Program-made: the position numbers and the translations under genes
Shown here: positions 1,155 to 64,000 of the stretch, in pieces
How positions within the stretch are numbered: position 1 is the stretch's first letter
Layout: every line of letters starts with the position of its first letter
Source: a virus
Length of the DNA: 64,000 nucleotides
Virus record (IMG/VR): IMGVR_UViG_3300017774_004344
Span: 27,650-91,649 of that record
Reading direction: 5' to 3' (one strand)
The notes under the pieces: model-generated
What the model saw: only the letters and a program-made list of their open reading frames with translations
Told to the model about the DNA's origin: nothing
The model's database searches: none

Positions 1155-1772
1155 TCAAATAAAGTCTTGTAGTTCGGGAACTGCCTCTCTCACTTTCTTA
1201 GTGAAACGCGCAATGTGTCCGTTGGTAGCTTGCTTAGTAAGACCGTACTTTAGGGCCACCTCGCCTTGTCGCATGGGTTTTCTTCCAAGCAGTCCGAAGC
1301 GGTCGCAGACAATTAGAGCCCGCTTACTGTCCAGAGACCCGCAACCCTTCCTTACAAGTTCGGCAATGTCAATGTTAGAAAATTCTTCTTTCAGCTCGTA
1401 AGCATTCGGATCCTCGAGGTTGTGTGACCAGTCGGATTGCTCCAGAGATAGAGCATACTTCGGGTTCTTCTTCTCTTTTCGAGCTGCCCCTTGGACTGCG
1501 CCACGAACATTAGGATAAATCCAAGTCATTGGACGAATTGGTCTATCTTTGACTCTGAAGTCTAAGTCGAAAGTTTCGATTGCCTTAAGAACCCCGTCCA
1601 CAAGACCTACCTGTACGAGGTCATTATACATGTGGTCGGGCACCATAAATTTGTACTTATGGGCGAACTTGTGAACAAGGGGTGTGAACTTTCTCAGAGT
1701 CTCTGTTACAGCGCGAGAATCGCCCCGCACAGCGTTGTAAAAGGTTTCATCGGTGTACATGGTGTTTGTCAA
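1155..1772 (-). CDS. Phage RNA polymerase sigma factor, group 3 (SigF/SigB/FliA-like)
   Basis: Region 2 PLVHKFAHKY...DLVQVG...LKAIETFD...TWIYPNVRGAV; region 4 HTH RFGL...QGEVALKYGLTKQ; start may be the ATG at 1760. Confidence 0.85.
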   Translation of the reverse strand: MTNTMYTDETFYNAVRGDSRAVTETLRKFTPLVHKFAHKYKFMVPDHMYNDLVQVGLVDGVLKAIETFDLDFRVKDRPIRPMTWIYPNVRGAVQGAARKEKKNPKYALSLEQSDWSHNLEDPNAYELKEEFSNIDIAELVRKGCGSLDSKRALIVCDRFGLLGRKPMRQGEVALKYGLTKQATNGHIARFTKKVREAVPELQDFI

Positions 1773-1780
1773 CTCCTATA

Positions 1781-1846
1781 AGTATACTGTCTCTAAGGGC
1801 GAAAGACAATGCCGGTTTACCGGCTATACAGGGCGGTTTACCGCCC
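1781..1846 (-). promoter_or_regulatory. sigma70-type promoter (TTGTCT-17-TATACT) with two upstream palindromic CGGTaaACCG boxes
   Basis: -10 at 1781-1786, -35 at 1804-1809; palindromes gccggtttaccggc (1811-1824) and gggcggtttaccgccc (1831-1846). Confidence 0.65.
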
Positions 1847-1851
1847 ATCCC

Positions 1852-2118
1852 CTACTTTTCTAAATTTTGATATTCTTCCAGTAGAGCCATGGAAGGTAAT
1901 CTTTCGTTGTTTTGGCGCATGACCCATAAACAAGCTGCTTTCTGAGTCATCCACGCGGAGAGTAACTGCTTAGCGAGTGCTTTCAACTCAGAAGCATTAT
2001 CGCAGGAGTCAATAGCTCTTTGCATTTTTTCTAACTCGAAAGTTTGAGTCAGAGTCAAAGCAATTGCGTCCGGCTGGTTGGACTCAGTTGGGATGTCGGG
2101 ATTCATCGGTTTCGTCAA
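1852..2118 (-). CDS. nblA: Phycobilisome degradation adaptor NblA-like protein
   Basis: IALTLTQTFELEKMQRAIDS...ELKALAKQLL...Q resembles the NblA LSLEQxF two-helix pattern; probable start 2106. Confidence 0.7.
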   Translation of the reverse strand: MTKPMNPDIPTESNQPDAIALTLTQTFELEKMQRAIDSCDNASELKALAKQLLSAWMTQKAACLWVMRQNNERLPSMALLEEYQNLEK

Positions 2119-2605
2119 AGTAATAAACAGGAACTCCTACTTCTAGTAAAAGATCACTGGAGGTTCTGAAATTGTCCGACCACTTCGAGCCTTGTAAGGC
2201 AGGAGGTGGGCAAATAATCTTTTCAACTCCTGCTTGTATGAGCATACTTGCGCATAGTGAACAAGGGTGAAAAGTTACGTAAGCGGTAGTTCCTTCTAGT
2301 GTGACCCCCTTTCGAGTCGCATCTATTATCGCGTTTGCTTCTGCGTGGATAATGACTTTACCCTTATAATCCGGATCTGTTAAGCGTTTCAGGTCGTCAG
2401 ACAACCCTTCAGGAAACCCGTTAAACCCTTTGCAAACTTCTCTCTTCCCTCTTACCAAGACACATCCAACTTTTCTTTTCGGGTCTTTGCTCCAAGAGGA
2501 AACTTCTCTGGCTCGGCGAAGGAACCTAAAGTCCCATTCGGAGAGAAAGGGTGTGCCCCTTAAGGAGCAATCAGCGATTGTCACCGCTTCCCTGTAAAAC
2601 GCCAC
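2084..2605 (-). CDS. dCMP deaminase
   Basis: SKDP..KVGC, GFNG, HAEANA and PCSLC zinc-deaminase motifs. Confidence 0.92.
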   Translation of the reverse strand: MAFYREAVTIADCSLRGTPFLSEWDFRFLRRAREVSSWSKDPKRKVGCVLVRGKREVCKGFNGFPEGLSDDLKRLTDPDYKGKVIIHAEANAIIDATRKGVTLEGTTAYVTFHPCSLCASMLIQAGVEKIICPPPALQGSKWSDNFRTSSDLLLEVGVPVYYFDETDESRHPN

Positions 2606-2897
2606 GTTCAGACCTGGAGGATAGTTTCTCTAAGTTCAGTTGAGCAATGTCCTCTAAGGAATAATCAATTTCGGCGGCAAGTTGGGAAATATACCACATA
2701 ACGTCTCCGACTTCTTTTGCAATCTGTTCTCTCTTTACATCGGTGATAACTCCTTGGTCGTCGCGGAGGATTTTCTTAACTTTCTCTGCTACCTCTCCCG
2801 CTTCCCCGCATAAGCCAAGAGCACAATACTCAAGTGCCTTGTCAAAGGGGTAAACAGCGGTGGCGCGTGTTCGTTGTTGGTAAGTGTTTAGATCCAT
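2571..2897 (-). CDS. mazG: MazG-like nucleoside triphosphate pyrophosphohydrolase
   Basis: GEAGEVAEKVKK...KEVGDVMWY...NLEKL..R...G...GSGDNR. Confidence 0.88.
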   Translation of the reverse strand: MDLNTYQQRTRATAVYPFDKALEYCALGLCGEAGEVAEKVKKILRDDQGVITDVKREQIAKEVGDVMWYISQLAAEIDYSLEDIAQLNLEKLSSRSERGVLQGSGDNR

Positions 2898-2947
2898 TTT
2901 TTTGGTTGAAATTCGAATACAGTTTAGCGGTTTTATGGGTCGTATAC

Positions 2948-3448
2948 TCAGAAGCTGAATTCAACTTCTTCAACTTCCCCCTCTTCAACCATCGCCTCAT
3001 AGGACTTTTTGACGAGGCCCAAGTTGAAACGAATAGTTGTTGGAATTTTCCCAGCGAATTTTGAAACCCCTCTAAGCATATCTTGGGCTGCAAGGACATC
3101 ATAGTCAAACGTTTCCACGTTCCTTTCGGGGAAGAAAATGTTTAAGCTCAGGTCACTGCCTTCGGGAATGAACTGTAGAGTCGCTTGGTTTAAAACGATT
3201 GATCTTTGAGTGTCAGTAGTTTGAGACCGTAAAGACACTAGGAGAGTCAACCATTCCAAGTTGTTATAGTGGTTACCAAGAGGAGAGAACAGGTCAAAAC
3301 TGGCAGGAAAAACTCGGTACCCGTAGTCAGCTTCAGCTTCAGCAACTACCGTAACGTGGGTTAAATAAACTTCTTGGTGACCGGACTTCCCTCTTTTTAC
3401 AAGGCTTTCATTCAGGTAGCTGTGCGGATCTTTGTAAGTTTGTGCCAT
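2948..3448 (-). CDS. Hypothetical protein with acidic/aromatic C-terminus (EEVEFSF)
   Basis: ORF in the coding strand, overlapping its upstream neighbour. Confidence 0.65.
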   Translation of the reverse strand: MAQTYKDPHSYLNESLVKRGKSGHQEVYLTHVTVVAEAEADYGYRVFPASFDLFSPLGNHYNNLEWLTLLVSLRSQTTDTQRSIVLNQATLQFIPEGSDLSLNIFFPERNVETFDYDVLAAQDMLRGVSKFAGKIPTTIRFNLGLVKKSYEAMVEEGEVEEVEFSF

Positions 3449-3863
3449 TTGGTTCAGGATGTTCGTAAACTACATAGCCACCGTTCGTGACATTTCGGAA
3501 GGGATCGTTGGGAAGCACTTCCGTTGTATTATTGCGGATGCGGTTCTTTCGTAAACCCTCTTCGTCTCCGAACTGAGGGTGCTTGCTAAGGAGGTCCCAA
3601 ACGTGCCTCTTAGACTCAATGCTGAAAGCGCCAAAGTATCGGTCAACGGCGTTATTTTCCGATCCGGAAGTTGTTCTCAGAGGGTTAGCCTCAGCGAAGG
3701 TTTTTTCTTTCGGCTGAGATAAGTCTTCACGAGACTTTATTTTGCGCTGCAGAGAGCGCTTCAAGCTGAAAGAACCCGACCCGTTACCGTACCCACCCTG
3801 AGAGTTGATAGGGGTGGGCAGGTCAGGCTGTGAATCTTCCGGATTTTGGAAAAGTCCGTTCAT
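3408..3863 (-). CDS. Hypothetical protein
   Basis: Translationally coupled (TGATG) to the upstream ORF. Confidence 0.65.
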   Translation of the reverse strand: MNGLFQNPEDSQPDLPTPINSQGGYGNGSGSFSLKRSLQRKIKSREDLSQPKEKTFAEANPLRTTSGSENNAVDRYFGAFSIESKRHVWDLLSKHPQFGDEEGLRKNRIRNNTTEVLPNDPFRNVTNGGYVVYEHPEPNGTNLQRSAQLPE

Positions 3864-4243
3864 CAGTTGAGTGGTAAACGTAGCGAAGGTACGAAAGAAT
3901 TCTCGCTAACTTTGCGAACTCCGATAATGTACTTCGTTGCAAAGTATTGTCCGGGTTCCGGGATCAAGTAGCCGAATTTTACAATTTGCCACAAAGAAAC
4001 TAAGTGGAAAGCGTAATCGATGTGCTCGGTTCCTTCCACGAAAGTTTTCACAAGAAGTCGAGGAGTGTATAACTCACAGAAACAATTCAGTTCTTGAACT
4101 GTTCCAATCATGTCGTATAACCCAGCGGGATCGTCTGCCAGAGTAAACCCTTCGGATTTAAGTTGTTCCTTGAGTCGCAGTTGTTTTTGACATTCGTAAG
4201 TAAATGAATCCACGAGAGTTTGTTCTGGGGTTTGTATGTTCAT
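3863..4243 (-). CDS. Hypothetical protein
   Basis: ATGA overlap with the helicase stop. Confidence 0.7.
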   Translation of the reverse strand: MNIQTPEQTLVDSFTYECQKQLRLKEQLKSEGFTLADDPAGLYDMIGTVQELNCFCELYTPRLLVKTFVEGTEHIDYAFHLVSLWQIVKFGYLIPEPGQYFATKYIIGVRKVSENSFVPSLRLPLN

Positions 4244-6264
4244 ACTTTTACCCCCTTGCTTTCATAGAGTTTTTTACGAGCGGATTCTCGGAACTTCTCT
4301 GCACGGTCAGGAGAATAGTGCTTATCGAGAAGCCAATCATCAAAACATACCGCTTTCGGGTCGAGCAGTCTTTCCTTGTCGATCTCTTCCATAAATCCCA
4401 CCAACTTTCTGCCCTCAACCACAAGCTCCTCTTGAGCGTGGCGGCAGTTGTTCCAATTCTCGATGACGTAGTTCGCTTCGCCCCCAATCTTGAAACCGTC
4501 TCTCATCACCAATTTCTCCATGATTTCTCGGATGAGTGTAAGAGCGGTTTTATCTTTGGTTTCTTTTCGAAGCCCGGTGGTATCGTCGAACAGGCTTTCC
4601 TTAGCAAGAGAAATTGCCTTTTTAACAGACTCCCATCTCAACTCTCGGAAACCTTGATAGTAGTGGGTTGAAGTTCTTCCTGCAAGCTCCCACTCCCTCT
4701 TCATTCGAGCTGTCAGGTGTTGGCAAGAGGGGTCTACTCCTACGAAGTAAAGAGATTGTAGATAATCATAAAGAACGTCCGGTGTCATTTCAGGCATGAA
4801 ATCCCACTCTGATTGCGTCCTCACAGAGTGAGCGAACGCCATCGCGTTCACGAGAGCCTGAGTAACGTCTGCCTTGAAGCGAATCCGTTGACGTGTAGTC
4901 CAGTAGCGAACTTCCACCTGAAGTCTGTTTATGCTTGGGTCTGAGGTATCTTGGATAACTTCCCAGAAGCGATCCGTTGCTAGACGAAGGCACCACAAAT
5001 ATAGAGCGTCTTTGCTAACGCCAAGTTTATTAGCCAAGTAAGGAATGTGAGCACGGGGTCTTAGGTCAGGGGTGCCCTCACAAACTGTTCCTTCTAAGTT
5101 TTCCCTATTTTTAGCAACTTCATATTCTCTGTAAGTACTAATTAGCTTGATCCTATCAATGATTCCGGGATCCAAATCATAGGCGAATTTGCTATTCCAG
5201 TCATTGGCATTTAGAAGAAGTACAGTTTTTGGCCAAACTTCCTCTGAGTTTCGAAACTTGTCCTCAACTGTGAAGATACCCCCGGTGATCAGGATCTTTG
5301 TTTCTTCTGCGGCCAAGAATTTTTTCAAGGAAGGGAGTGCCGTATCATCTTTGTAAGCGATGTCGCTCAACGCGACTTTCTTTAAACCGAACCGGTCTTC
5401 TGTTGACTTGAAAGAATGGGTGATGAAACCGCACTTAGAGAAAGCAGCAGTCATGCCATTGAAGATGGTGCTCTTCCCTAATCCTGGATCTTTACCCACG
5501 ATCACCCCCGCCATACGAGCAGTGTGATCTACTTTGTCTTTTCTACCTGGCGGAAGATGATCTGTTCTACCAACCCCTATGCGGCCCATGATAAGCTTAA
5601 GCATCTCACACTCGGCTTCAGGGAAGATAGTAAATACGTCTCTAATTGATACTTTATGCAAAGCGGGGTCAAACCATTCTCTATCTGGCACCCACACACG
5701 AGGGTTCATTACTGGCTCCCCACCGAACCTACCCGCAGGATCAAAAGTATGACCGTAATCTAAAGTTTCACTAAGGTTTTTACTCTGGTTAACTTTTCTC
5801 ATCTTCAATAACCTTTCGCTGAAAGAAAGAAGAGGTGAATCTCCCGCCTTAGGGCTGTATAAAGGTTCCCAGAATGTTCTCACTTCGTCTGGACACAAGT
5901 CAGGATGAAAGCATGTTTCTACACGCTCAAAGTCATCATAGACAGAGATGTCTTGTAAGGGGTTAAAGTCTGCAGGATAACGAATGCCTCGAACCATCTG
6001 CGGGGGTGAGGGCTTCAATATTCTGTGTAAACAATGGTCACCATTTTCGTCAATTTCTACGGTAAAACCTTTCGCCTTCAAAAGGGTAATACCCGCATTG
6101 TAAAGTTCTGATACTCTCGTTGGCGCTTTTTTCTTCTTTTCTTGTTTTTCCTCTCCGTCTTTCTTCGAGCGGAAGGAAGTTGCTTTGTTTCTTTCTCGGG
6201 CTTCGTTCAGGATACCAATTTCCTGTTTCGTACTTCCGAGTCCCCCAGAAAAGGGATCTGCCAT
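4240..6264 (-). CDS. P-loop NTPase, probable SF3/D5-like (primase-associated) DNA helicase
   Basis: GVIVGKDPGLGKST Walker A, AYKDD Walker B, LITGG...EDKF and LLLNAN motif C. Confidence 0.65.
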   Translation of the reverse strand: MADPFSGGLGSTKQEIGILNEARERNKATSFRSKKDGEEKQEKKKKAPTRVSELYNAGITLLKAKGFTVEIDENGDHCLHRILKPSPPQMVRGIRYPADFNPLQDISVYDDFERVETCFHPDLCPDEVRTFWEPLYSPKAGDSPLLSFSERLLKMRKVNQSKNLSETLDYGHTFDPAGRFGGEPVMNPRVWVPDREWFDPALHKVSIRDVFTIFPEAECEMLKLIMGRIGVGRTDHLPPGRKDKVDHTARMAGVIVGKDPGLGKSTIFNGMTAAFSKCGFITHSFKSTEDRFGLKKVALSDIAYKDDTALPSLKKFLAAEETKILITGGIFTVEDKFRNSEEVWPKTVLLLNANDWNSKFAYDLDPGIIDRIKLISTYREYEVAKNRENLEGTVCEGTPDLRPRAHIPYLANKLGVSKDALYLWCLRLATDRFWEVIQDTSDPSINRLQVEVRYWTTRQRIRFKADVTQALVNAMAFAHSVRTQSEWDFMPEMTPDVLYDYLQSLYFVGVDPSCQHLTARMKREWELAGRTSTHYYQGFRELRWESVKKAISLAKESLFDDTTGLRKETKDKTALTLIREIMEKLVMRDGFKIGGEANYVIENWNNCRHAQEELVVEGRKLVGFMEEIDKERLLDPKAVCFDDWLLDKHYSPDRAEKFRESARKKLYESKGVKV

Positions 6265-6296
6265 ATAGCCTCTTGTTGTTTAGGGTTTGACGGTGT

Positions 6297-6333
6297 AGTA
6301 TAGCAAAAGACCCCAGCGGTAAGCCAGGGTCTT
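6297..6333 (-). terminator. Intrinsic terminator hairpin overlapping a putative promoter (GCTTAC-N16-TATACT) for the helicase
   Basis: Minus strand aagaccctggc-ttac-cgctggggtctttt, immediately followed by gctatact. Confidence 0.6.
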
Positions 6334-6365
6334 ATAAATCTAAGAGTTCACCTTAGAGGGACTTA

Positions 6366-7337
6366 TCAAAAGTCCAGGTCGAAGCTCTCGGGATTTTGAA
6401 CAAAGTTCGGGCACTTCAAGGTAACCTTGGCGGCAGGGTTGCCGTTGTACTCATAGTGCTCGATAACTTTAAGTGTTGCCGGAGCATCAGAAGTGATCAG
6501 GGGTTCGGCAGCTAGAATTTTCTTCATTGCTCCGTTCGGTTTTACGATAACCCAATCAGAGATTTCGGTGTCTTGGTCAACCCACTCCCCATCGACTTGA
6601 GTGCGAATTGGAGCCACGAAAGGCTCAGACACTTTCGCTTGGAGGAAGTAGTCTGTTCCATAAGCTCCACCTTCCTTAACCCTGTAAGAGGTGATTGTGT
6701 ACTCACCGAGGGGCAAATACGCGACCTTAAGGAAGGGACCGATAAGGCGCTCTCCACCGGAGCTTTCACCACGCTTCGAGATGTCTGGTGCGGCGTAAAC
6801 CTTTTCAGCAATTGCTTCAGGGTTTTCGTCGAGCAGAAGCTCAAGAAGATCTGCGGGTAGTTCTTCCTTGATTTCCTTCTTACGAATTGTAATGGGCAGG
6901 GTGTAGAGAGTTCCATCTCCCTGTGCTGAGACAGAAAGAACGGGCTCGGTGTACTTACCGATCTGCTCATCTTTGAACGCGAACTTGGTGCCCTTCGGTG
7001 CATTCGCTACGCCGATTTTACCGGGAGCTACAAGGAGGGGGATGTCGCGGTCGCCCCAACGAATCACCAAACCGCCTTCTTCAGTTGAGAAGATTGTAGG
7101 AGAGTACAAACGTTGGAAAGTTCCGTTGGCGTCGGCCTTCACAGTGAAGGTAGACCCTTCGAGGTCAAAGTCTTCGCCGGTTAGGGCCTTGAAGACTGTG
7201 GACAAACCGTTACGGTAAGTCTCAGGGAGTGCTCTATTCGGGATATCCGTGTATGCCCTTGTGTAGCTCTTCGACTCAAGCCGAGCGCGGTTCTTATCGT
7301 CAAGTTGGGGCAGGATTTTGAATGTAGTTACAGCCAT
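6366..7337 (-). CDS. Putative single-stranded DNA-binding / replication protein
   Basis: Beta-rich, upstream of the helicase, acidic-aromatic tail ESFDLDF; ATG at 7337 (MAVTTF) preferred over TTG at 7391. Confidence 0.5.
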   Translation of the reverse strand: MAVTTFKILPQLDDKNRARLESKSYTRAYTDIPNRALPETYRNGLSTVFKALTGEDFDLEGSTFTVKADANGTFQRLYSPTIFSTEEGGLVIRWGDRDIPLLVAPGKIGVANAPKGTKFAFKDEQIGKYTEPVLSVSAQGDGTLYTLPITIRKKEIKEELPADLLELLLDENPEAIAEKVYAAPDISKRGESSGGERLIGPFLKVAYLPLGEYTITSYRVKEGGAYGTDYFLQAKVSEPFVAPIRTQVDGEWVDQDTEISDWVIVKPNGAMKKILAAEPLITSDAPATLKVIEHYEYNGNPAAKVTLKCPNFVQNPESFDLDF

Positions 7338-7395
7338 TTTGTTACTGGTTAAGAACGCGATAACCTGAGCCTTATTGCTCAGCACGTTCAAAACA

Positions 7396-20185: not shown

Positions 20186-21100
20186 CTAAATAATTGGGTA
20201 CCGGCAGATCCAAACTCCAGAGCCTCCGGCGCCACCTAAGCTAGCGGTCGGAACTACACCACCCCAAACTATACCACCACCTCCACCACCTCCCAGCCCA
20301 TCGGTACCAGCGATACCATTTCCTGCACCAGTTCGGCCGCCGCCGCCCCCACCACCGCTGCCACCCGTTGCGGCCGGCGTGCCCCCCTGGGAGCCACCGC
20401 CACCTCCACCGCCGTACCGGGTGTTGATGCCTTTAATCGAACTTTCACGACCAGCACCGCCGTTGCCACCAAGACTCCCGAAACCATTCCCACCAGCGCC
20501 ACCAGCACCACCGCCACCGCCGCCACCTCCCTGCCCAGCACCACCGCTCGTGCCCGCAGTGCCACCAGCAAACCCGCCATCATTTCCTATGCCGCCAGCA
20601 CTACCGGGGCGAAACGCTCCGCCACCGTTGCCACCAGCTCCGCCATTATTCGGGGCCGCTTGCCCTAAGAATCTTGCTCCACCACCACCGCCTAACGCGG
20701 TTATCCCAAGGGCCGAAGAGTTTCCACCAGTTCGCTGAAGAACCGTGTACTGGCCGTCAGTACCACCAAGACCGCCGCTACCAATGGTAATTGTATAACT
20801 TTGTACTGTGACCAGGGAGCTTCCGACCTTGACGCCACCGCCGCCACCAGCACCACCCCCGCCGGTTGAGTTATCTCCACCATTACCACCACCACCACCA
20901 GCGACGAGCAAGTATTCAACCGTGGCCCCCGCCTCGGCGAATGTAACAACAAATGACCCAGAAGCCGAAAATGTGTGAACTTTATATTTCACTCTTGAAA
21001 TGGTGATTATTTCTTCCGTGCCGCCTGTAGCTTCTATTATTTTGATAGGTTCAGCAGGGGAGTTGAACCCAGCAGCCAGTAAAGAGCGTTGATTGTTCAT
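20186..21100 (-). CDS. Glycine-rich tail-fibre-associated protein
   Basis: ATGG...YKVHTF...VEYLLVAGGGGG...GGSGV.I.RY glycine-rich domain. Confidence 0.8.
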   Translation of the reverse strand: MNNQRSLLAAGFNSPAEPIKIIEATGGTEEIITISRVKYKVHTFSASGSFVVTFAEAGATVEYLLVAGGGGGNGGDNSTGGGGAGGGGGVKVGSSLVTVQSYTITIGSGGLGGTDGQYTVLQRTGGNSSALGITALGGGGGARFLGQAAPNNGGAGGNGGGAFRPGSAGGIGNDGGFAGGTAGTSGGAGQGGGGGGGGAGGAGGNGFGSLGGNGGAGRESSIKGINTRYGGGGGGGSQGGTPAATGGSGGGGGGGRTGAGNGIAGTDGLGGGGGGGIVWGGVVPTASLGGAGGSGVWICRYPII

Positions 21101-21102
21101 GA

Positions 21103-24100
21103 TTATGCTGTTAGTCTCCCATACAAGTAAGAAACATCAATAACTGTCCCCCCACCAACAACCGTGATGATTAAAGTCTCAGTTTCATTTGGCGTTGGTA
21201 TAATTGCCGTATCTCCGTCCCACCTCACCGTGTAGCCAGTGTTACCGGGAAACCAATTTATGGCCCCAGATGTATATGCAAACGAGAATACACACCTCCA
21301 GACTGTCCCGGTGGGAATACTCGTGAGGTTGGAAAGGTTTACCGTCGTAGCGCCTGCAATGGCCGCACTCGTTACAAACTCATTCCCTAGAGTTGCATTC
21401 AGGGTATAGGTCCCGGCAGATGCCGTAATTGTCGTTCTAATTGAATATTGGGTACCGTAGGTTACACCCGAAACTGAACCCCCTGTAAAAGAGACATTTG
21501 CAGAACCTAGAGTAACCCCGGAGATTGCTCCACCTGTGATGGCTACGTTGTTAGCGGCCTGCGCTGCCATGGTTCCAGCACCTGATATTGTGCTAAGCGC
21601 TTGAGTACCAGTATGGTTAGCGCGATTCAAAAGGAAAGTATCAGTCTGGTTTGCAGTTGCTCCATCTGCAACACCGTTAAGCTTTAATTTATCAGCTGCA
21701 CTCATGGTCCCGCGAGCGGAAGTTGTTGCTGCTGCGATAGACAAAGTCCTCACATAGCTCCAAATTCCTATCCCGTTTACACTAGCATTGCCGATAACAC
21801 TTAAAGGCCCACCGAGTTCGGTAGCCACGCTAGTAACATAACGACTACCGGTGTACTCCTTAACAGCGAACTGAGTTGGTACGGTATTCCCATCGGCAAC
21901 CCCTGTACTTGCGATTAAGCTTGTGTTATTGCTAACCTCGCGAAGCTGCTCGCCGACTGTGCTAATACCGCCGTTTCTGCTGAATGGCCCGATGAAATTC
22001 AAGCCCGACAAGTTAAACTGATCTGTATTAATTGTAACAGCGCCAGTGGTACCGTCTACATTAAAGCTGTTTCCGACTGAAAAGTTTCCAAGTTCATCGG
22101 TGTTGCTGCTAAATACTCTACCGTTGTTCGTTTCAATTATGTGGTTGGCAGGGACGGGTACCCCTCCGTTATATGGTAAGGCATCATAGTTTGTGCCAGA
22201 GCCAACATATTCAAAAGTGTGGCTTGGGGCGCTAACTTGGCTTCGGTTTCTAAAATCAATAACTTGGTTGGCATCGATCGTATTTTTTAGGCCCCCGTTA
22301 GTTCCAGAATAGAAGTTAATTCGGTAACCCGCTTGATTAGGTGCGTTAAACGGTACAGGATTTCCGTTAATATCAATCGGAACACTACCTGTAATCACGT
22401 AGCCCGAAGTTGGGCAAATAAAGTTTAGGCCCTCAACCGTGACGGTTCCAGAAGACGCCCCAGGCAAAGGGGTTACGGTTGTGATCGTTACGAGCCCAGT
22501 GTTTTTAACATAGGTACAATCTGCCACCCCATAGTTAGTTGAACCGATAGTGGCCGTACCACCTGAAACATATTCGTGTTCTGGGCCAGAAGGAGTTGCC
22601 GCAGCTTGATAAGTGAAGGTATTGGCGCCGACTTTTGTATAGGAAAACGCTGTAGCACCACCACTTGGGAAAGGAAGTTGAGGGAATAGTAAAATACCGG
22701 AACTAGGGCGGCTAGAGGAACTACAAGTGAAAAACAGATTCTGCATCGTCACTTGTGCGCCCAAGGTAGGAGCATAACCTGCAGCTGTCAGGACCGTGGA
22801 GCCAGTCAGGTTGTTGTAAGTACAACTTGTGACTGGATAAGTATTAGCGCCGATGGTAACAGTTCCGCCACCGATATACTCGTGCCTGATGGAGCTGGTA
22901 CCTATGGTTACCGTGAAGCTAGACCCTGCGGATGCACCACCTCTAGCTGTGATCGTGACGGCATTTCCAGGACTTCCCGCGCCCCCTGCAGTAGGGTATT
23001 TGAGTTGTCTCCCTAATCTATTAGCACCCAAGTCTATTACATCAATTTCGGTGTCCCCCTGGCGAATAACTGTGTAAGTCCCGGTAGCAGTTCCGGAAAT
23101 ATCAACTGGAGGTCCACCTTGGGTCAAAGAAACTCTGAAATCTACCGTAGTGAAACCACTGGAAATCACAAAGTATTTCGTCCCTGTTACTATGTTATCC
23201 GGGAAAGTTCCTTGCGAACAGTTAAAGACAACTTGGTCGTCAATTGAGAGCCCATGCCCCAAAAGGTCGATGCAAGTTATCAGATCGGTAGAAACATTAA
23301 ATGTAACACCTTTTTCAATCCTGGACGCACCAAATGCGGACACCCGTGCTTTTGCGGTGTACAGGGGGGATGGGGAGTAACCATCGGCCATTAATCCGTA
23401 TGTACCAAAGTCACTAGTACCACCACCAGAAAGGTTAACTTGGCCTCCGCTTTCAGTACGAACATGGTAGATACAGAAAGTCCCGAAGAACGAAACTAAC
23501 TGCGCGTAACCATCATTTTTGACAAGGCAACCCGGACCACCGAGGTTAACCTGCGTGAAGCTGTCCACCACCATTGATCGGATGGGGCTATTTTTAGCAC
23601 AGGATGCACCATCAACAATGATTCCACCACCTGTATCACCAGTTGACTGGGAGCCTGCGTTACCGTTGTCGTCTTCTGCAGTCAGGGAGGTACAGTTTTG
23701 GATGTAGGGGGATTTGAAAATGTAAGCCCCAGGGCCGACAGCTCCTAGTGCAGTGTTATCAGCAGTTTCATCAAAGCTGACGGACCAGGCTTGCTTCCCA
23801 GTAGAGCTATCTGCTTGATGCCCCGCAAATTCCAGACCCCAACACCAGAATCCACTATCTACTTTGAAAATATCATTATATTCTTGACCGGCTACAGGTT
23901 GTACCCGTGCGTTACGAAGACCCTTACCCAAAATGCCAACATCACGCTTCCAACGAATAGGGAGACTCGGTTCAGTATAAAGACCGGGGCCAACTTCAAC
24001 CAGATCCCCAGGTTGGGCCGCTGCTGCTGCTGCGCCAAGTGTTAGTAACGGTTCCCCTAGAGAAGTTCCATTGTTGCTGTCGCTAGCGTAAATACTCTTG

Positions 24101-62119: not shown

Positions 62120-62145
62120 AAAAAAAGCCCCGGTTAGGGGGCTTT
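62120..62145 (-). terminator. Intrinsic terminator after capsid and tail tube genes
   Basis: aaagcccc-ctaacc-ggggc followed by ttttttt. Confidence 0.8.
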
Positions 62146-62156
62146 AAACTTGTGAC

Positions 62157-62600
62157 TCAGGTTCTATCCCAAGTGTTCACGGTCAATTGAACCTCAATCT
62201 CTTGAACATTGCCGCTTTCACGGTCAACGTCAGCAGTATTGATAGACATGAATTGACATCCGTAACAGGTGTATTGGCCGCCAGCCGTAGCTGAGCCGTA
62301 TCCAACACAGTCCTTCGGAGTGATAGTAACTGTGATTTCTCTGCAATTGTACTGCAACCAGTAAATTTCTAACTGCTTAAAGATCATGGGATCGTATGGA
62401 GCGGTTAGAGTGATGTTGTCTACCTTTTTGGGGCCTACAACGTGGTAGATACGGTTACCGGTACCATTGGCATAATCACTACTATCGGAGGAATCTTTGA
62501 TTCCGCTGAATTTTGTAAACGTGGCGATTAGGGCGGGGCCATCAGGAGCTACGAAGGAGACTTCGTACTGGGCCTTTGTAATCGGTCTGAGAATTGCCAT
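62157..62600 (-). CDS. Tail tube protein (gp19-like)
   Basis: 147 aa; FTKFSG...G.....NITL...YD...ITV...Y..YGC...D.D..SG...EIE..L.V. Confidence 0.75.
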   Translation of the reverse strand: MAILRPITKAQYEVSFVAPDGPALIATFTKFSGIKDSSDSSDYANGTGNRIYHVVGPKKVDNITLTAPYDPMIFKQLEIYWLQYNCREITVTITPKDCVGYGSATAGGQYTCYGCQFMSINTADVDRESGNVQEIEVQLTVNTWDRT

Positions 62601-62626: not shown

Positions 62627-63522
62627 TCAGGACAGGATGTCGGTGATCATAGCGCCAGAACCGATAAGTCCAGTTGCACCGAGGCCAACCAGGTTAACCA
62701 CACGTTCGATTGTGATTTCAGCACGCACGACACGTTTTTCGCGAATGTAGTACTCGGGACGGACGGCTGGGGTACCTGTCAACTGATAAGTATAACTGAA
62801 GGCCGGAGTCGCAGCATTAGCACCACCCGAAGGCATGATCGAATCAGAAGGACCGTTGGGGCTGTAGAACAGAAGGATACCGTTGGCTGGGAATACCGGC
62901 TGTAGGGCTCCGTTTGAGGCCAAATAACGACCTTCGGCTACGCGCAGGCCACGCTCAAGACCGAAGTAGCGAGCGATGACGTCGGTGTCGATGCTGTCGG
63001 CGGAGGTATACTTGATACGATCAAGGATGGCCGCGTTGGTCAGCAATAGGTCGAAAACAGCGGTTCCAAGAACAGCGGAGTTCGGACGGATGCCGATCTG
63101 GTTGGCAACAGCACGCTTCATAGTCAGGATGTCCTCAATGGGGTTAGAGGTTGCACCAGACCATGCGGCAGGGCCAGTGGTTGTGCCATAAGCGGTGTTG
63201 AAGGTAGTCCAGGTTGTAAAACCAAGACCAGTTTGTGAGCCAGGAGTCCCATTGTAGGGCTCGTATGGGTTGTAGGAACCAGTAACGGTAACAGCCTGAG
63301 AAACTGTGTACTCATATGAGTTCATCAGTCTGGACATTGCGTTACGGGTTTCGATAGCGCGGAGATCCACTTGCGCGGGACCCTCCCCAGCGTTTTCGAT
63401 CACTTCTTCCGGCAATTCCCAAGCCACAACTTCTTGTTCAAGGGCGTAGGGCTCAGAGTCGTAACGGCTTTGGACGGAGGGAATGCTAGTCCCGTAAGCA
63501 CGACGGAAGTCGTTAATAGCAA
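62627..63522 (-). CDS. Major capsid protein, last exon
   Basis: Frame extends upstream of the ORF-track start to (F)AINDFRRAYG; W....SNPI.DI, IG.RPN, P.F.YTY motifs of GpE-like capsid proteins; host-like high-expression codon usage. Confidence 0.85.
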
Positions 63523-63761
63523 CATTATGTTATCGTAGAGACTCTTTATTCCCTACCTCTGCATGTTTCCATGCAGTTCAGACTATATCATCGTTTTGTA
63601 AACAAAACGTCGGGCGCTCGTGGATTGTTCACCTGTTCTAGGCTACTTAATCTAGTCGTTGAACCTTGCTTTTATCCCTAAAAGCCTTGGCTGCTGATTT
63701 CCCTCGTCTTTACGTTAGGGGTTCCCAGCAATTCACCCAATTTTACAACAGCAAGCTATTT
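63523..63761 (-). ncRNA. Group I intron (IA-type, ORF-less, 239 nt) in the major capsid gene
   Basis: P AAUUGCUGGGAA, Q AAUCAGCAG, R GUUCAACGACUA, S GAUAUAGUCU; P1 AACAGU/GCUGUU with U.G at the 5' splice site; terminal G; splicing restores the frame. Confidence 0.92.
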
Positions 63762-63828
63762 ACTGTTCCTTACCAAATCTGAGAATTCTCCCAGCTCTGG
63801 TAGGGGTGTCCACAACAGGTGCGATAAA
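63762..63828 (-). CDS. Major capsid protein, 67-nt micro-exon (FIAPVVDTPTRAGRILRFGKEQ + U)
   Basis: Bounded by the omega-G of one intron and the U 5' splice site of the next; P.V.....G.I..FGKE.F capsid motif. Confidence 0.85.
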
Positions 63829-64000
63829 CACTTGTTACCGTGAGAGAGTTTATCACTCACTTCTTACAGTTTCCTGTAAGTTCAGACTATATCATCATCT
63901 TCACCGAAGCAAAGAGTCGGGCGCTCTTGGGACTTTCTTCTGTTCTAGATTACTTGTCCTAGTCGTTGAACGTTCTCTCAATCCCTTGAGAGCTTCGCTG
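63829..64000 (-). ncRNA. Second group I intron in the major capsid gene (3' part; 5' end outside the window)
   Basis: R GUUCAACGACUA (63971-63960), P3' GCGCCCGA, S GAUAUAGUCU (63893-63884), P9 CUUACAG-GAAA-CUGUAAG, terminal G at 63829. Confidence 0.88.

Follow-up and report, generated by a model that had tools for sequence, protein, structure and literature searches.

Group I introns interrupt the major capsid gene of an uncultured freshwater cyanophage, with splicing predicted to be needed for capsid protein

RESULTS

The capsid gene and its genomic setting

The window (the whole 64,000-nt stretch analyzed here) is the final 64 kb of a single 91,649-bp IMG/VR virus record, which is linear and about 40% complete, and its position 64000 is the contig end, falling inside intron 2 of a capsid gene. 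On the minus strand at this end lie the 3′ exon of the gene, a complete intron (intron 1), a micro-exon, and the 3′ part of intron 2, with a tail tube- or virion structural-like gene downstream (Table 1). Judged from homology, the interrupted gene is the major capsid gene, of the Phage_cap_E type (HK97-fold, lambda gpE-type). Its exon scores 39.1 bits against Pfam PF03864 Phage_cap_E (cut-off 22.9) and matches phrog_1005, major head protein, with an E value of 1.3e-37; the protein is 67% identical to gp175 of Synechococcus phage S-CBWM1, which is annotated as major capsid protein. Both the profile score, which exceeds the cut-off, and the orthology to gp175 place it in the PF03864 family, in agreement with the initial annotation, which had named a capsid gene from the letters and open reading frames of the window. 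In S-CBWM1, the capsid gene is followed by gp176, an annotated virion structural protein, giving the same gene order as in the window. Directly 3′ of the tail-tube-like gene, at minus-strand window positions 62120-62150, a GC-rich hairpin with a T run behind it (AAAGCCCCCUAACCGGGGCUUUUUUU) looks like an intrinsic terminator closing the capsid/tube transcription unit.

The same phage record encodes, outside the window, a Photo_RC (psbA-like) gene (G000:C1:12215-13105, 290.9 bits), and the nearest cultured relative by capsid gene is S-CBWM1; the source virus is therefore an uncultured cyanophage. No match to the psbA-like gene was found in G001, an otherwise related complete genome. Judged from relatives, the full genome probably measures about 230-280 kb. 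Circular closure of the 91,649-bp contig was considered and rejected, as no terminal repeats were found in the record and its opposite end encodes unrelated proteins.

Table 1. Features of the interrupted capsid gene, its two introns, and the downstream gene (positions in the window)
Feature	Position	Strand	Details
Downstream gene, tail tube/virion structural-like	62157..62600	minus	PF06841 (weak, E 5e-4); phrog_35249 tail tube
Capsid stop codon TGA	62629-62627	minus	
3′ exon, capsid	62627..63522	minus	CDS nt 161-1056 of the 351-codon gene; spliced alignment to intronless CDS L003:3839-4894
In-frame TAA 5′ of the truncated capsid ORF	63532-63530	minus	
Intron 1, complete, 239 nt, group I, ORF-less	63523..63761	minus	After CDS nt 160 (codon 54, phase 1)
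Intron 1 omega-G	63523	minus	
Intron 1 S	63589-63580	minus	GAUAUAGUCU
Intron 1 R	63664-63653	minus	GUUCAACGACUA
Intron 1 Q	63699-63691	minus	AAUCAGCAG
Intron 1 P	63733-63722	minus	AAUUGCUGGGAA
Intron 1 P3	63740-63734 / 63616-63610	minus	UUGGGUG / CGCCCGA
Intron 1 P1/P10 guide region	63747..63769	minus	Direct reading and motif search; P1 in minimum-free-energy fold
Intron 1 P1	63767-63762 / 63752-63747	minus	5′ exon AACAGU / internal guide GCUGUU; 6 bp, U-G wobble at splice site
Intron 1 P10	63760-63755 / 63520-63515	minus	AAUAGC / 3′ exon GCUAUU; 6 bp
In-frame UAA/TAA at 5′ splice site	63760..63762	minus	Last exon U plus first two intron bases
Predicted intron 1 ligated junction			GGAACAGT / TTGCTATT
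Micro-exon, 67 nt	63828-63762	minus	CDS nt 94-160; encodes FIAPVVDTPTRAGRILRFGKEQ and first base of F54
Predicted intron 2 ligated junction			Upstream GCGAAT / TTTATCGC; peptide across it includes NIANFIAPVVDTPTR
Intron 2, 3′ 172 nt of a group I intron	63829..64000	minus	After CDS nt 93 (codons N31/F32)
Intron 2 omega-G	63829	minus	
Intron 2 S	63893-63884	minus	
Intron 2 P3, 3′ strand	63923-63917	minus	
Intron 2 R	63971-63960	minus	

Exon junctions and reading frame

Exon coordinates were obtained with a spliced nucleotide aligner written for this analysis and run against the coding sequence of an intronless homologue, and they give exactly the micro-exon and junction boundaries that had been proposed in the initial annotation. 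A database search returned many intronless homologues of 350-351 aa with 70-95% identity, in which the N-terminal region reads MMNLQQTYAGVDPILTTLAQGFMLPSTNIAN-FIAPVVDTPTRAGRILRFGKEQ-F-AINDFRRAYG... and the protein is contiguous at both points of interruption (...NIAN/FIAPVV...GKEQF/AINDF..., with slashes marking the window's junctions). The micro-exon translation is identical to residues 32-53 of the intronless homologues P0004 and P0007; codon F54 is completed by the first two bases of the 3′ exon, and ligation of the two exons yields FIAPVVDTPTRAGRILRFGKEQ-F-AINDFRR. From F32 onward, the window exons match the intronless homologues with no gap or shift. Both exons are undamaged and in frame, with 84-95% protein identity to relatives, and shifting either splice junction breaks the protein match. 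Excision of the introns thus restores the frame, both junctions reading as they do in the contiguous homologues; the uninterrupted FGKEQ-F-AINDF, for which an alignment to intronless capsid proteins had been called for, is indeed what these homologues encode.

The contig ends before the first 31 capsid codons and approximately 90 nt of intron 2 are reached, and the intron total is therefore stated as at least two; relatives point to further sites in the absent part, after CDS nt 9, 36, 41, and 75. Searches of the rest of the 91,649-bp record for exon 1 and for the lost 5′ half of intron 2 gave only chance-level matches, and no second capsid copy was found on this contig. Translation of the unspliced RNA ends after ...GKEQ, at the UAA created where exon and intron 1 meet; the further in-frame TAA that had been reported upstream of the truncated capsid ORF was also located (Table 1). 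It is reasonable to suppose that synthesis of the capsid protein would require both splicing reactions, because of the UAA at the 5′ splice site and because the sole capsid gene of the complete relative G001 is split as well. An exact-pattern search for the spliced junction gave 0 matches in viral contigs and 0 in metagenome contigs, a result that is uninformative on splicing.

Ribozyme structure of the two introns

The covariance model RF00028 matches intron 1 over its full length (model 1-253; window 63559-63771, minus strand) with 94.5 bits and E 4.8e-23, against a gathering score of 50. The complete group I core that had been read by eye on this strand was recovered element by element, with P, Q, R, S, P1, P3, P10, and omega-G each at the place first given for it. 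A single-sequence fold (z = -3.9) reproduces P1, P3, P4-P6, the P7-P3 insert, P8, and P9. The insert, 34 nt between the 5′ strand of P7 and the 3′ strand of P3, forms nested hairpins in the minimum-free-energy fold. Intron 1 holds no endonuclease gene, its longest internal ORF being 8 aa.

The initial annotation had also placed the end of a second intron at 63829, and this boundary holds. The 172 nt visible contain P8 and P9 in addition to the elements in Table 1, and they give a 5′-truncated RF00028 match (window 63863-64000, model 95-253; E 4.5e-10 when 201 nt were searched) whose score of 42.8 bits does not reach the gathering score, as half a model would not be expected to. These 172 nt are 86% identical to the complete 263-nt intron occupying the same site (after CDS nt 93) in L094 and L101, and the L094 intron scores 85.7 bits. 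In relatives, site-93 introns combine the 5′ exon GCGAAU with the guide GGUUC, and CGAUA at the intron 5′ end can pair, as P10, with the 3′ exon UAUCG, which is the same in the window. P1 and P10 of intron 2, like the start of the gene, are deduced from relatives only. No endonuclease ORF was found in the visible part of intron 2, and an exact-pattern scan of metagenome contigs with a window-specific stretch of this intron gave 0 matches.

Nineteen introns from different sites align as one family, with compensatory double changes in 25 of 39 consensus pairs, among them pairs in P3, P4, P6, P9, and P9.x. Stems of a putative P7.1/P7.2 region covary by eye in the same alignment (GAUU/AAUC, GAGUU/AACUC, CAGC/GCUG, GCCU/AGGU, and AUCU/AGAU), and, with this insert, the window introns resemble subgroup IA. 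The guide follows the exon site by site, as in GUUC/GAAU, GUCC/GGAU, GCUGUU/AACAGU, and GCCGUAA/UUACGGU. The P1 helices are short (4-7 bp), and cognate and noncognate combinations, with means of 4.9 and 4.1 pairs, are barely separated; the argument from guide and exon is drawn from the guide sequences specific to each position and from the Rfam alignment, not from the P1 pair count. A P3-P9 core with P, Q, R, and S, a U-G pair in P1, omega-G with P10, and compensatory changes are thus all present, for intron 2 partly as seen in its relatives, and by these structural features the window introns are genuine group I ribozymes for which self-splicing is predicted.

Group I splicing requires guanosine and Mg2+. 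In the mechanism proposed for this gene, the capsid pre-mRNA would hold at least two group I introns, one between codons 31 and 32 and one after the first base of codon 54. Splicing in vivo is inferred, with each intron expected to excise itself by two-step, guanosine-initiated transesterification. The terminal U of the 5′ exon would pair with a guide G in P1, P10 would align the 3′ exon, and the intron would end in omega-G. Exon ligation would then produce an uninterrupted 351-codon frame. Unspliced RNA, with its UAA at the 5′ splice site, would be translationally dead.

Capsid introns in related phages

A search for a motif shared among the introns returned 21 IMG/VR stretches, one of them from G001, whose complete 279,339-bp genome has direct terminal repeats. 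Its capsid gene (L104, G001:C1:70500-79500, minus strand, approximately 1700-7350) holds 13 of the 17 RF00028 matches in the genome and consists of 13 introns of 239-918 nt and 14 exons, with approximately 82% of its length being intron. The exons measure 9, 27, 5, 52, 57, 10, 32, 81, 8, 37, 38, 539, 32, and 129 nt, the shortest being CCCAU; three boundaries in this map were corrected by hand, as automatic refinement mis-shifted some very short exons. Joined together, the 14 exons encode an intact 351-aa capsid protein. Twelve of the 13 introns have a U before the 5′ splice site and a 3′-terminal G. The G001 intron at site 93 (L104:6174-6450, minus strand, 277 nt) appears to end in A (...uuguauauua/UUCAUA), as do those of L090 and L089, and no alternative junction that keeps the conserved N-F-I was found for the G001 intron.

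Intron load in the capsid gene of relatives ranges from 0 to 13. Other contigs carry 1 to 7 introns, partly in different combinations; in G002, a partial record, there are about 13. Altogether, introns are inserted at no fewer than 15 sites (after CDS nt 9, 36, 41, 75, 93, 150, 160, 192, 273, 281, 303, 318, 356, 895, and 927), of which the window introns occupy 93 and 160. The same introns at these two sites recur on independent contigs: L104 (G001), L106 (G002), L090, L089, L107, L094, and L101. L107, with 96.8% identity to the window across the final ~780 nt compared (the capsid 3′ end and the DNA just downstream), carries seven introns, including those at sites 9 and 41 in the region absent from the window. 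Close relatives with 84-100% identical capsid proteins have 0 to 13 introns, at the same and at other sites. Among related loci, 76 of 80 are intronless, a figure that is no estimate of prevalence, since the search favored uninterrupted matches to the long 3′ exon.

In L106 (G002:C1), insertions of 759 and 419 nt flank a 10-14-nt piece at CDS 883-897, where the deduced protein reads SDTN and all relatives read SYTY; either the exon map is wrong there or the allele is damaged. G001 also contains a second gene (L105, G001:C1:19000-23000) with three close group I introns (RF00028 matches at 20378-21454). These are flanked by a 310-aa ORF that carries a P-loop-like GKDPGLGKS motif on one side and by a 327-aa ORF on the other; no Pfam family was found for either flank.

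The relatives also bear on the truncation of the window's gene. A decaying pseudogene or an assembly artefact, with an intact capsid gene in the unassembled 60% of the genome, might be suspected of a contig that is about 40% complete, ends inside intron 2, and lacks exon 1. This is very improbable: the exons are intact and in frame at 84-95% protein identity to relatives, several contigs that were assembled independently share the same introns at the same sites, the intact ribozyme cores show covariation, and no second capsid gene was found in the complete genome G001. Scarcely credible is a capsid gene truly split at intron 2, whose two transcripts would be joined by trans-splicing, even though the record stops within that intron and the missing 5′ half occurs nowhere else in the 91.6 kb. 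In L094, L101, and L107, the intron is contiguous (262-263 nt) with upstream exons directly 5′ of it, and the simpler explanation is that the contig broke off at a repeated intron that varies among strains.

DISCUSSION

Proposed mobility of the introns and significance of the predicted capsid splicing

The long introns at sites 9, 93, 273, 318, 356, and 895 encode matches to the homing endonuclease family phrog_655 (PHROG 655), and these intron ORFs also have weak HNH and NUMOD3 Pfam matches. The window's own two introns, unlike these siblings, show no endonuclease gene. As siblings at site 93 and elsewhere carry endonucleases, the window copies are read as probable endonuclease-less derivatives or passengers. 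Intron 1 is 98% identical to the same-site intron of G001, and the exons of the two genes are 87% identical. In the micro-exon, identity is 92.5% with the L085/L094/L004 lineage and about 72% with L003/L104; over most of the 3′ exon (CDS nt 261-1056), the L003/L104 lineage is the nearer one. This mosaic looks like a gene-conversion tract tied to acquisition of intron 2, as would be expected from co-conversion. The overall pattern fits selfish mobile elements, because copies with and without endonuclease genes coexist and because the intron is more conserved than the exons. The mode of spread would be homing, driven by siblings with HNH-type endonuclease genes, together with recombination during co-infection. 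In this way, a mosaic family of mobile introns would have colonized at least 15 sites of one gene in large freshwater phages of about 280 kb, with the window copies probably carried along as passengers.

The initial annotation had gone on to propose that a capsid gene in need of at least two ribozyme reactions could couple capsid production to GTP, Mg2+, or light-dependent host state. The need for both reactions stands as a reasonable inference; the coupling finds no support, and the 0 to 13 introns in relatives count against it. As a full alternative, a regulatory checkpoint in which splicing efficiency ties capsid synthesis to host GTP, Mg2+, or the light/energy state would draw on obligatory splicing, on the cofactor needs of group I introns, and on the light dependence of a phage with a psbA-like gene. 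It is nonetheless improbable. Close relatives with near-identical capsid proteins lack these introns or carry other sets, making the introns look dispensable; no ligand-responsive element is suggested by the sequence; and the sibling endonuclease genes, together with an intron conserved beyond its exons, point to selfish spread. Very probably, then, the capsid gene harbors selfish mobile group I ribozymes whose splicing is needed for capsid protein. What the analysis shows directly is the sequence and structure of the introns, their junctions and homology, the covariation, and the polymorphism in presence/absence; splicing in vivo and the mode of spread are inferred.

Gene prediction yields no more than a 266-aa fragment at this locus, and many fragments in relatives; recognition of the introns restores the 351-aa protein. 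If the predicted splicing takes place, the most abundantly needed late protein of these cyanophages would depend on ribozyme chemistry. The window itself is a modest, incomplete two-intron example. Together with its relatives, it belongs to a natural allele series, running from 0 to 13 introns with near-identical proteins, that suits the question of what intron load costs, as well as studies of intron spread within one gene, the handling of very short exons, and endonuclease-mediated competition in co-infection. More tentatively, the window may hold one allele of the most heavily intron-loaded phage gene known. Ordered splicing or cooperation among introns may be needed, because exons of 5-10 nt cannot alone supply full P1 and P10 partners, and endonuclease-bearing copies might act as weapons against co-infecting relatives that lack introns. 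If so, capsid-gene intron load would be a trait under between-phage competition, beyond mere parasitism.

Comparison with known phage introns

SPO1-like Bacillus phages have DNA polymerase introns with I-BasI/HNH endonucleases, and orf142 of Staphylococcus phage Twort has three introns. The core of the introns described here is 74-82% identical, over about 100-280 nt, to introns in polymerase genes of Bacillus phages. Like the SPO1-like and Twort-like introns of subgroup IA, the present family has several introns in one gene and siblings with HNH endonucleases, and it has a putative P7.1/P7.2 insert between P7 and P3; siblings apart, the host gene and the phage group differ.

Group I introns in phage capsid genes are already published, for LittleE, Tuc2009, and crAss-like Zeta phages, and the initial annotation, in calling introns in late genes only occasional, understated these capsid cases (PMC3706429, PMC7886860). 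A literature search, which was not exhaustive, returned no paper on this cyanophage lineage or on a phage gene with 13 group I introns. The LittleE capsid gene contains one 819-bp group I-type intron with an endonuclease gene, and its splicing was confirmed by RT-PCR and N-terminal sequencing; a capsid-gene group I intron of Tuc2009 is cited in the same paper (PMC3706429). LittleE resembles the present case in having an HK97-fold capsid gene, a 5′ exon ending in U, an intron ending in G, and splicing that restores the frame of intronless relatives, and in that only some members of the phage cluster carry the intron. In contrast, the window has at least two short introns 67 nt apart, with predicted splicing and no visible endonuclease gene, and its capsid family and host group are different.

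A precedent for multiple insertions is the crAss-like Zeta-group phage cMAG OLRF01000054, whose MCP gene is broken into five pieces (Yutin et al. 2021, PMC7886860). This capsid gene, too, is split by multiple group I-type insertions, a published multi-intron case. Its introns, from phages of gut Bacteroidetes, were recognized mainly via endonuclease domains (PMC7886860), whereas those of the present family, in phages of a cyanobacterial host, are mostly ORF-less ribozymes of 215-300 nt with base-exact junctions and number up to 13 in relatives. The Jug jumbo gut phages likewise combine large genomes with essential genes split by short group I introns: terL, nrdD, and DNA polymerase genes are interrupted by introns of about 206 nt, and about half of the predicted introns had their splicing supported by metatranscriptome reads (PMC12880540). 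In Jug phages, about 18 introns per genome are distributed over many genes (PMC12880540), whereas in the lineage of the window they are concentrated in one, the capsid gene.
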